Part shown: positions 11,072 to 12,999 of the stretch, piece by piece | How positions within the stretch are numbered: the first letter of the stretch is position 1 | Layout of the letters: each line of letters starts with the position of its first letter | Source: an uncultured Thermoprotei archaeon | GTDB lineage: Archaea; Thermoproteota; Thermoprotei; Thermofilales; B15-G2 | Assembly: GCA_965367815.1 (NCBI GenBank) | Contig: CBDUKN010000004.1 | Coordinates: forward strand, 64,001-128,000 | Reading direction: 5' to 3' | DNA: 64,000 bases | Position numbers and translations under genes: made by a program | The notes under the pieces: generated by a model | What the model was told of the DNA's origin: nothing | The model's input: the letters and a program-made list of their open reading frames with translations, nothing else | Database searches by the model: none

Positions 11072-11332
11072 TTGATGGAGGACTACGATAAACTTTACCT
11101 CATTCGAGTATTTACAGGAGTAGCTGTAGGAGTAGTCTGCGGTATACTATCGCTGAACTTACTCTACGGAGCTGGACTATCGATTATCGTGTACTACGTG
11201 TCTCACAAGATCTCTAAGAAAATATATAAAGGGGAAAAACCCTGGGCAGTAGGCCTTGGCGAATACATAGGACTCTGGATAACACTTTGGTGTATAGTCT
11301 ACAGCCTGCTCTACTGGAAGCCGTCTATTTGA
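11072..11332 (+). CDS. EMC6/Rab5ip-like small three-TM membrane protein
   Basis: [16 protein letters not shown]...[17 protein letters not shown] matches the EMC6 pattern. Confidence 0.6.
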
Positions 11333-12039
11333 CATACAACAGAACGCCCCACTGAATCTGAAAATACTACTTTATTCTCTTCTTCCCTGAAAAACACTAT
11401 CTTAGAGAACCTCTTGAAGAAAATATTTCCTAGTCTAGGTTCGCGTATAAAAAAGAAGACAACAGCAACATTTTTCTCGAAAGCTATATGAACAGACTTT
11501 AAGTAAAGCTTAGCAATATTAGAGAGAATATTAAGTGACGATTTGCCTAAACTTAGCTCATATGATATAACATTATCGAGTGAAGAAATTAAAAGAATTT
11601 TAAAATCTTTATTAAAAAGGTCTTCAATTAGTAGAATGAGCGAAGATAGCGAGCGTGCTCTAGCGTAAATGATGTTTTTCAACACACTTTTAACATCTAT
11701 GCCTCTATCCTTAGCTAGCTGAACTATTCTCTCAGGTCTAAATGCACCCTCAGTATCGATACAGACTGCCTTAGCGCACGAGTCTTCTTCTTTGAACATC
11801 AGTTGAACTACAAAGCACAGCCAGTGCAATAGTAGACTTTTGATACGGCTGCTTTCTCCGACGAATTCTGTTACTGCTTGTGTTTCTATTCCTCCTCCGA
11901 GGAGTTCGTCTAGTGCTTTACATCCTGTTGAAATGTATTGAACCTTCTGCCTCTTACTCCAGTACTCTTCAGCAGTAATAAACCTAATACCAAGAAGCGC
12001 TGCTAGAGATTTTAAGGGATTAACTGTTTCTAAGTCCAC
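11311..12039 (-). CDS. Truncated RadA paralog with degenerate Walker A and B
   Basis: 48 codons identical to radA, then diverged; Walker A GESSRIKS, Walker [17 protein letters not shown] kept; no N-terminal HhH. Confidence 0.75.
11855..11998. repeat. 144-bp exact direct repeat, copy 1 (in the RadA paralog)
   Basis: Identical to 12680-12823 by direct comparison. Confidence 0.92.
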
Positions 12040-12057
12040 ATAAAAAGTACTCTGACT

Positions 12058-12999
12058 CTATATATCTACAATGCCCTCTTCTGTTATCATGAATACTGCC
12101 TCTGATTCGGGGTGTTTTGGGGAGTCAAAAATCTTAGCGATTCTTCTGCCATCCTTACTTTTTCTTAGCCATATTCTGTAAGTGCATCCATGGGCTACTA
12201 CGTGGCCGCCAGCGGGTCTAGTTGAATCTCCGAAGAATGCTTCTGGGTTTGCTAGTACTTGGTTTGTTACTACTACTGCTAGGTTGTATACGTCTGCTAG
12301 TTTAATGAGCTGGTGTACATGCCTATTAAGCTTCTGCTGCCTAACAGCCAAATTCTCCCTACCAGGATACTCTGCTCTAAAGTGACTTATCAGGCTGTCT
12401 ACTACAATGAGCTTTATGTTTTCTTTCGGCACCAAGTCCTTAAGCTCATCTACCAGCAACATTTGGTGGTCGCTGCTGTATGCTCTAGCATAAATAATGT
12501 TTTTCAGTGCTTGCTTCGGGTCAAGACCCCTATACGAGGCTATTTGTATTATTCTTTCTGGCCGGAATGTTCCCTCGGTATCTATGTATACTGCTTTAGC
12601 ATTAAGTCCTCCTTTGTCATAGGGTAATTGAACCATTACACATAACTGGTGACACAACTGAGTCTTACCAGCACCAAACTCTCCGACGAATTCTGTTACT
12701 GCTTGTGTTTCTATTCCTCCTCCGAGGAGTTCGTCTAGTGCTTTACATCCTGTTGAAATGTATTGAACCTTCTGCCTCTTACTCCAGTACTCTTCAGCAG
12801 TAATAAACCTAATACCAAGAAGCTCTCTGGCGGCTTGTGCTATTTTTGCAGCCCTGTCTTCGCTTATACCGAGTACTTCTGCGAGTACTCTCGCTGGAGT
12901 TACTGCTATAGACTCTACTGTAGTAAACCCCGCCTCTTTAAGTTTCTGTGCGGTAGCTTTCCCCACTCCTCTTATTTCAGTAATTTCGTGTTCAGTCAT
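12058..12999 (-). CDS. radA: DNA recombinase RadA
   Basis: HhH (IRGVGKATA), FITA motif, [27 protein letters not shown]. Confidence 0.98.
12680..12823. repeat. 144-bp exact direct repeat, copy 2 (in radA)
   Basis: Identical to 11855-11998. Confidence 0.92.

Follow-up and report, generated by a model that had tools for sequence, protein, structure and literature searches.

Why should a short RadA paralog that has lost its ATPase motifs keep one stretch of its gene letter for letter identical to the radA beside it? The question is raised by a locus in a 64,000-nt stretch of DNA (the window; positions 64,001 to 128,000 of contig CBDUKN010000004.1) from an uncultured Thermoprotei archaeon, in which an intact, full-length radA of 313 amino acids (aa), radA-1, is followed 18 nt beyond its stop codon by a stop-free 242-aa open reading frame (ORF) with a GTG start. 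A preliminary description, made from the letters alone, had pointed out this ORF and an exact 144-nt block shared with radA that ends at Walker A, and the ORF listing of the window, a repeat search and the alignments bear both out. The analysis finds a real gene pair, recurrent gene conversion over the block and a selected, non-catalytic paralog, and this core is held with high confidence.

The radA pair and its shared block

The genes and the shared elements are placed in the window as follows.

12058–12999, minus strand: radA-1, a short 'type-2' RadA of the kind that precedes the paralog in relatives; Pfam Rad51 (316 bits) and HHH_5
11311–12039, minus strand: short RadA paralog with a leader helix, FxxA and a RecA-like core, without Walker A, the Walker B aspartate or the helix-hairpin-helix (HhH)
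12680–12823, minus strand: conversion block, radA-1 copy, aa 60–107, ending in TEFVGE
11855–11998, minus strand: conversion block, paralog copy, aa 15–62, 0/144 differences from radA-1
11971–11982, minus strand: FITA, the FxxA polymerisation motif of the paralog (aa 20–23, from the translation); the radA-1 copy lies at 12796–12807

The shared stretch was recovered by the repeat finder as a direct repeat (11855–12001 = 12680–12826) of 147 nt, spaced 825 apart and mismatched at a single position, and its 144-nt core shows no difference between radA-1 and the paralog. The protein segment that it specifies takes in the end of the linker, the FxxA motif and the strand before the P-loop. In both the DNA and the protein alignment the identity gives out one codon inside Walker A, where that motif has its first variable position. 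Outside the block, the aligned codons of the two genes are 46% identical at the DNA level, and an exact 144-nt repeat amid otherwise saturated divergence is not attributable to chance.

The block was followed through four lineages, namely the genome under study (G000), a strain contig whose paralog is 93% identical to that of G000 (L061, protein P0001), the sister species (L063, protein P0004, the species to which G001 also belongs) and a third species, 64% identical (L062, protein P0003). Within a genome, radA and the paralog differ at 0/144 block sites in G000, 0/144 in L061 and 1/144 in L063; for the third species, the radA on contig L065 and the paralog on L062 differ at 0/98 sites, both contigs breaking inside the block. 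From one lineage to another, 6, 17–20 or 27–29 of the 144 sites differ, with the same substitutions in both copies. Since the block co-varies with the lineage's own radA in all four, it has evolved in concert by gene conversion, and the 144-nt block is a recurrent conversion tract, as the preliminary description had proposed; the check that it suggested, whether the block tracks each relative's own radA, is answered in the affirmative (0, 0, 1 and 0 differences). Paralogs within a genome are thus closer than orthologs in one part of the gene, recurrently, which is the pattern of partial concerted evolution. Mechanistically, homologous recombination repeatedly copies the 144–147-nt stretch between radA-1 and the adjacent paralog, so that this stretch stays identical to the cell's own RadA while the rest of the paralog evolves independently.

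The identity could also be an artefact of assembly or polishing, or the tandem arrangement a mis-join. The genome is assembled in 37 contigs of short-read style, and overlaps of k = 77 lie at contig ends inside radA genes, where another radA (radA-2) is split between the end of contig C13 and the start of contig C28 (L005:1351–1884; L006:2–250).

12610–12686, minus strand: 77 nt of radA-1 (radA-1 nt 314–390) equal to the last 77 nt of contig C13, the N-terminal piece of radA-2
12231–12307, minus strand: 77 nt of radA-1 (radA-1 nt 693–769) equal to the first 77 nt of contig C28, the C-terminal piece of radA-2

Identical 77-nt overlaps at contig ends are the signature of a k = 77 assembly graph, and three paths through the repeat graph are therefore formally possible. 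Joins that look chimeric also occur in other assemblies (P0002, L064). Logan contigs from four runs labelled as vent or related metagenomes contain both unique flanks together with strain variants, but, being interrupted at the repeat, they give no connection between one flank and the other. Against an artefact, two long and independent metagenome contigs repeat the order of radA, spacer and paralog with near-identical or identical tracts: the 112-kb contig L061 has an 18-nt spacer and a shared tract of 147 nt at 100%, and the 169.6-kb contig L063 a 20-nt spacer and a shared tract of 352 nt at 99.7%. Further, the block tracks radA lineage by lineage, and complete genomes of relatives hold the same kind of tract. 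The radA type that stands upstream in the tandem pairs of relatives is the nearest to both the N- and the C-terminal parts of radA-1, whereas the contig-end pieces of radA-2 resemble the long main RadA type. Alternative paths (b) and (c) through the repeat graph were ruled out by the layout of L061 and L063 and by the type of the radA-1 ends. Genes downstream of the pair are also conserved in independent contigs. The artefact explanation is disfavoured and regarded as very improbable indeed; the assembly collapse that the preliminary description had named as a hazard is contradicted by L061 and L063.

In two of the runs, X2 and X6, the paralog-side contig reaches into the block and carries G>T at 11902, and X2 has two further block variants (11944, 11950); the two copies of the block may be non-identical in some strains.

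Selection and motif loss in the short paralog

Beyond the block, the paralog differs from RadA in the following features.

11836–11859, minus strand: degenerate Walker A, GESSRIKS, aa 61–68; radA-1 has GEFGAGKT at 12661–12684
11584–11586, minus strand: Ser152, replacing the Walker B aspartate (D201 of radA-1; VVDS to LISS in the protein alignment)
11653–11854, minus strand: fast-evolving segment from Walker A to IIYARA, aa 63–129, homogenised with radA in most relatives, not here
11314–11652, minus strand: paralog-specific C-terminal half (C-half), aa 130–242, under purifying selection

The aspartate D201 of radA-1 is invariant in 19 RadA sequences. In the Pfam search, HHH_5 is found in radA-1 only, the paralog beginning 14 residues before the block without an HhH, and the Rad51 match of the paralog covers only profile positions 1–170 of 244, with 106 bits. 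Loops L1 and L2 and the ATP-cap segment, which carries the DSP motif in RadA, are unrecognisable. Against the NCBIfam models, the paralog scores below both RadA cut-offs (127.1 vs 259 for NF003301; 119.2 vs 361.15 for TIGR02236), for which radA-1 scores 495.7 and 483, and below both RadB cut-offs (44.3 vs 172.4 for TIGR02237; 38.2 vs 278 for NF006861). Four other short paralogs were tested, and these also fall below the RadA and RadB cut-offs. By score, HhH, Walker A pattern (GxxxxGK[ST]) and Walker B aspartate alike, the paralog is not a member of the RadA family. The paralog has lost Walker A, the Walker B aspartate, the HhH, the L1/L2 loops and the ATP-cap segment and, judged from its sequence, cannot be an ATPase or a strand-exchange enzyme.

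The AlphaFold2 model of the paralog, computed from a purpose-built alignment of 21 paralogs, has a mean predicted local distance difference test (pLDDT) of 85.6 and a predicted template modelling score of 0.84, with only the segment 203–207 below 50, and its best fold matches in the PDB are the ATPase cores of DMC1, RadA and RAD51, with template modelling scores of ~0.8. FITA is placed between helix 3–16 and helix 23–30 in this model.

Loss of so many motifs (Walker A, Walker B, HhH, DNA-binding loops and ATP cap) would also be expected of a decaying relic of a tandem duplication, either untranslated or translated without function. The low G+C content of the C-half (0.31–0.37) points the same way, as do the orphan status of this half, whose profile reached nothing beyond its own cluster among 1.84 billion representatives, and the 18-nt spacer between radA-1 and the paralog, in which inspection found no clear ribosome-binding site. 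However, an open frame of 240–244 aa is kept in all four lineages, although synonymous sites are saturated or nearly so, with neither stops nor frameshifts, and the ratio of non-synonymous to synonymous divergence (dN/dS) is not near 1. For the C-half, dN/dS is 0.22 against L061 (dS 0.069) and 0.16 against L062 (dS 1.33), the corresponding values of radA-1 being 0.05 and 0.03. Between G000 and the species of G001 and L063, synonymous sites are saturated, and identity by codon position was used in place of dN/dS: the C-half is 46/61/31% identical to the G001 ortholog at the three positions (Fisher p = 9e-5) and 81/81/54% identical to that of L062 (p = 2e-7), third positions being far more diverged. 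Segment aa 63–129, where constraint is weakest, has a dN/dS of 0.39 against L061 and codon-position identities of 64/64/43% against L062 (p = 0.006). Among the variants listed, the diverged part holds 9 synonymous and 10 non-synonymous changes (over ~114 and ~426 sites, pN/pS ~0.3) and radA holds 11 and 0; in a binomial test, the probability for the diverged part is 0.01 against an expected non-synonymous share of 79% and 0.08 against 70%. A derived P-loop replacement is, moreover, common to lineages that are 64% identical, and the predicted fold is compact and confident. Together, these comparisons indicate that the paralog is a protein under purifying selection and not a neutral relic; the relic reading is disfavoured and considered improbable. 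The motif losses and the intact frame given in the preliminary description hold, and so does its view that the diverged part is not neutral.

Homogenisation across the order and within the genus

The pair is a member of a wider group. RadA-like matches were found in 30 of the 31 genomes of the genus and order, and many of these matches are a radA followed by a shorter gene, with tandem pairs in G008, G011, G006, G009, G015, G014, G003, G029, G030 and G025 and a dispersed arrangement in one family. The paralog of G000 resembles the short members in lacking the HhH and standing directly downstream of a short-type radA. When the radA-like loci from the initial search were compared, two radA-like genes proved to share a tract of at least 100 nt, at no less than 96% identity, in 15 of 24 genomes, for example 277 nt at 99.6% in G008, 270 nt at 100% in G011, 280 nt at 100% in G006, 294 nt at 100% in G009 and 219 nt at 100% in G003. 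In three complete or near-complete genomes the partners lie 186–267 kb apart and still share 283 nt at 97.9% (G017), 280 nt at 96.8% (G012) and 293 nt at 100% (G023). G015 shares 296 nt at only 88%, and no tract was found in the fetched loci of G005, G020, G022, G004, G002, G016 and G007. In genus g5, L042, L043 and L044 keep a tract of 280–293 nt at 97–100% between genes 186–267 kb apart; L051, L052 and L053 carry a short paralog (GEAGSGKT or GEAGGGKT) and no detected tract.

In codon maps of 15 pairs, this canonical tract in nearly all cases begins at STGC, takes in an intact Walker A and reaches IIYARAY, with a sharp 3' edge; it omits FxxA, and the remaining aligned codons are 40–58% identical. 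When the DNA of the canonical tract is compared, 13 of 20 paralogs have the radA of their own genome as nearest neighbour, the seven exceptions being three rows of the clade without Walker A, G030 and G025 with partial tracts, G004 and G005. The maximum-likelihood tree of the C-half (the part after YARAY) places all of the short paralogs (20/20) on one side of a branch with a support of 95 in the Shimodaira–Hasegawa-like approximate likelihood ratio test (SH-aLRT) and all of the main RadAs (14/14) on one side of another branch (SH-aLRT 98), with the caveat that branches are long and the search was quick. As the C-half groups by paralog type, the tree indicates that the duplication is old and that the N-terminal half of the ATPase core has been continually overwritten. 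A recent duplication, in place of an old paralog with conversion, was ruled out by this tree and by the co-variation of the block across lineages. The old age that the preliminary description assigned to the paralog accordingly finds support in the tree; its implication that homogenisation is specific to the docking motif does not survive the comparison, the usual tract of the order leaving FxxA out.

Outside the order, tandem pairs of radA and a paralog were found among 62 genomes of the class, in G041, G042, G043 and G038–G040. No sign of homogenisation was seen among the matches listed in this indirect screen, in which the two tract matches lie 12–21 identity points apart relative to the query. 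The tandem arrangement thus seems to be older than the homogenisation. At G041:C40, G042:C33 and G043:C33, all of other orders, the tract regions differ by 18–21 identity points to the query.

In this genus the tract has moved. Its 5' edge lies four codons before FxxA, a motif that was not found in the short paralogs of other families of the order. The tract in G000 comprises the first 27 codons of the canonical span plus a 5' extension over FxxA; over the canonical span (STGC, Walker A, IIYARAY) the paralog is 69% identical to radA-1, so that the canonical tract is not present here. The sister-species paralog (P0004/L063) is identical to its own radA through GEFGAGKT to NIIYARAYS and keeps an intact Walker A. 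G000, L061 and L062 retain only the 5' 144–147 nt of the tract and share a derived P-loop replacement, GESSRIKS in G000, GESSRIRS in P0001/L061 and GETSRIKT in P0003/L062. The local tract may be viewed as one form of an order-wide homogenisation over the N-terminal half of the ATPase core.

The Walker B aspartate is missing from the paralogs of all three species in the genus (LISS, LISS and LVPS), as is the ATP-cap segment with the DSP motif, and two of the species have lost Walker A as well. Since all three lack the aspartate and one still has Walker A, the loss of ATPase activity predates the loss of Walker A in this genus, and the surviving Walker A persists by hitch-hiking in the converted tract. 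The short paralogs of relatives carry GEFGxGKT or GPxxxGKT and, where RadA has the L2 loop, a GDPY-like motif; the paralog of G000 has neither an intact Walker A nor GDPY, and that of the sister species has Walker A only. By this comparison, the ATPase-dead state is a derived condition of the genus. The preliminary description was right in calling this copy ATPase-degenerate, but degeneracy was not the original state, as the intact, converted Walker A of the sister species indicates.

Conversion is not confined to the tandem pair. The genome has four full-length radA genes: radA-1, one on contig C27, one on C13 and the split radA-2. The comparison with L064 suggests a tract shared by radA-1 and radA-2 that reaches to about radA nt 462 and a second at about radA nt 626–769, that is, two putative conversion tracts of ~145–150 nt each, with the diverged middle missing from the assembly. 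Joined forms were also observed: P0002 (335 aa) has the N-terminus of radA-2 joined to the body of the paralog, and L064:538–1488 has the front of radA-1 joined to the back of radA-2; these may be either mis-assemblies at the shared tracts or real recombinants. In G004, a 311-aa gene (L009:1297–2232) combines the HhH, FxxA and tract with a C-half of the paralog type (GDPY), without a short-type radA beside it, and looks like the deletion product of an unequal crossing-over between a tandem pair.

Possible role of the shared block and comparison with known systems

FxxA is described, in the relevant sections of PMC4855620 and PMC2800230, as the oligomerisation motif that holds RadA/RAD51 protomers together. 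The paralog carries it in an accessible linker (FITA, aa 20–23), identical to that of radA-1. Because the protomer-holding motif of RadA is kept letter for letter, the paralog may be able to plug the FxxA pocket, docking through its own FxxA into a RadA protomer and so serving as a non-catalytic cap or modulator, whether at the end of a filament or on free RadA. Being unable to extend an active filament for want of the P-loop, the ATP cap and the L1/L2 loops, it would act as a cap, a nucleation partner or a titrating inhibitor.

Co-assembly had been put forward in the preliminary description, together with complex prediction as a check. For RadA-1 with the paralog the score is 0.33 (runs 0.33, 0.46 and 0.32) and that of the best of three controls 0.00, with at least 69% of contacts in agreement between runs and a partner pLDDT of at least 79; no interface was reported. 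In calibration, 116 of 157 solved complexes attained the mark, as did 2 of 215 mismatched pairs, and passes at a score of 0.60 or lower comprise only 18 of the 157 solved complexes and both of the passing mismatches. The prediction lends co-assembly weak support, and the pass may reflect memory of solved RadA/RAD51 filaments. The FxxA acceptor pocket of human RAD51 consists of Met158, Ile160, Ala192, Leu203 and Met210, according to the relevant part of PMC4855620. The acceptor side of the paralog was compared with that of RadA-1. With the pocket positions placed by a presumed human numbering, four of the five hold the same residue in RadA-1 and the paralog (V92, I94, A126 and L137) and the fifth falls at an indel; this is a lead only and is given no weight. 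It is binding to RadA that the RadA-identical FxxA and the weak complex prediction suggest; that the identity exists for the sake of co-assembly, as the preliminary description had it, is a conjecture that goes beyond them.

Docking of the paralog on RadA via FxxA is proposed tentatively, at a little short of an even chance; the statement as a whole, from the real pair, recurrent conversion and selected non-catalytic protein to FxxA docking, is regarded as moderately probable. Several points weigh against it. Assemblies of the locus are error-prone, with contig breaks in G000 and G001 and the chimeric-looking P0002 and L064. For aa 63–129, near-neutrality is compatible with a dN/dS of 0.39 over 67 codons against a close strain. 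The structure model of the paralog leaned on an alignment built with other paralogs, and the C-half has drifted so far that its profile reaches its own cluster only. The complex score is weak, and the solved filaments could underlie its pass. The short paralog of G005 is only 55% identical to radA over the tract, so that identity is not needed for persistence, and most paralogs of the order lack FxxA, so that FxxA docking is not the general reason for homogenisation.

It is also conceivable that conversion is a neutral by-product, in which adjacent homologous genes recombine wherever identity survives, the tract is tolerated, its edges are set by mismatch barriers, and the function of the paralog need not involve RadA identity or binding. 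The position and length of the tract vary as such a process would allow (144 nt here, 352 nt in the sister species, 155–294 nt elsewhere and none in G005), and the RecA fold is at its most conserved where the tract lies. In addition, radA-1 is connected by conversion with radA-2, and paralogs with a dispersed main radA (G025, G017, G012 and G023), which points to a gene family that is recombination-prone in general. The same pattern is known in other prokaryotic paralogs, as described in parts of PMC6053082 and PMC4632066. On the other hand, tracts of 97–100% persist between genes 186–267 kb apart in three genomes. In addition, the same 5' edge, four codons before FxxA, is found in all of the genus lineages compared (L062 lacks that end), and the same 3' edge at Walker A is found in G000 and L061 and, at the protein level, in P0003, across a C-half dS of ~1.3. 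Selection against longer tracts explains the kept edges more easily, although a mismatch barrier could do so too. The neutral account is judged somewhat unlikely but a serious alternative, and the identity itself may be either selected for or merely tolerated where both proteins can share a sequence.

If the identity is selected, a further reading is that selection uses conversion as a shortcut to co-evolution. Across the order, the paralog would be a literal copy of the subunit-interface half of RadA, always fitting the cell's own recombinase, which itself would catalyse the copying; in this genus the copied piece would have shifted to FxxA, with ATP binding, DNA binding and the ATP cap discarded, leaving a self-updating, BRC-like plug that caps or titrates RadA. 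This reading is speculative and unlikely.

Long-lasting, domain-restricted gene conversion is known for mtrA-1/mtrA-2 of methanogens (the relevant part of PMC4632066), and the survey by Wang and Chen (2018; PMC6053082) lists, in the part concerned, 26 prokaryotic genes under such conversion, the seven archaeal cases all being from methanogens. The main text of that survey contains no occurrence of radA, and no report of radA–paralog conversion came up in full-text literature searches. The mtrA-type systems are similar to the present pair in that an ancient, often tandem duplication has one domain homogenised per genome while the other part diverges, and in that the products often belong to a single complex or homopolymer. 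The present pair departs from them in two ways: the gene being homogenised is that of the recombinase itself, the presumed catalyst of the conversion, and the tract has moved and shrunk in one genus.

RadB and the aRadC/KaiC-like proteins are archaeal RadA paralogs and presumed recombination accessory factors. Like them, the paralog is short, has the RecA fold, lacks the N-terminal HhH and is encoded alongside a RadA in the same genome. Unlike the paralog, RadB keeps Walker A and B; the paralog also falls far short of the RadB models, bears a much greater resemblance to RadA and lies next to radA. In the literature searched, no conversion with radA is reported for RadB or the aRadC/KaiC-like families.

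Among eukaryotes, the Shu complex comprises ATPase-dead RAD51 paralogs. One of the fold-search matches of the paralog model is PDB 9svx, 'XRCC3-RAD51C-RAD51D-XRCC2 capping a RAD51 filament'. The eukaryotic RAD51 paralog complexes are likewise made of RecA-fold paralogs that perform no strand exchange and bind filament ends, and some have lost nucleotide-binding motifs; however, they are ancient, fully diverged and without a conversion-maintained identity to RAD51, and binding is only predicted here. The BRC repeats of BRCA2 also use an FxxA motif to occupy the oligomerisation pocket of RAD51/RadA (described in parts of PMC2800230 and PMC4855620), but they are unrelated peptides mimicking the motif, whereas the present protein is RadA-derived and carries a literal copy of RadA's own. 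Two elements are new here: a clade whose paralogs bear FxxA and are ATPase-dead, and additional conversion tracts linking two full-length radA genes, the latter as suggested by the contig comparison above.

Control of recombination depends centrally on accessory paralogs of RAD51/RadA, whose engagement with the filament is only now being resolved. Within one order there is a graded series, in which some paralogs hold RadA's exact P-loop and FxxA-acceptor half, one holds the donor motif plus the acceptor half, and one catalytically dead clade holds the donor motif only, and this series makes the question of which RadA face the paralog needs directly testable with thermostable recombinant proteins. 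The recombinase gene itself is added to the few prokaryotic genes for which long-lasting partial concerted evolution is known. The locus also carries a practical warning, since both phylogenies built on radA and short-read assemblies of these lineages come out distorted at it.

Downstream of the paralog, a small hydrophobic ORF of 86 aa (11072–11332, plus strand) is convergent on it and overlaps its 3' end by 22 nt. The ORF has a faint match to EMC6 (E = 0.0027), below the cut-off, and an 87-aa ORF lies at the equivalent position in the sister species (L063).

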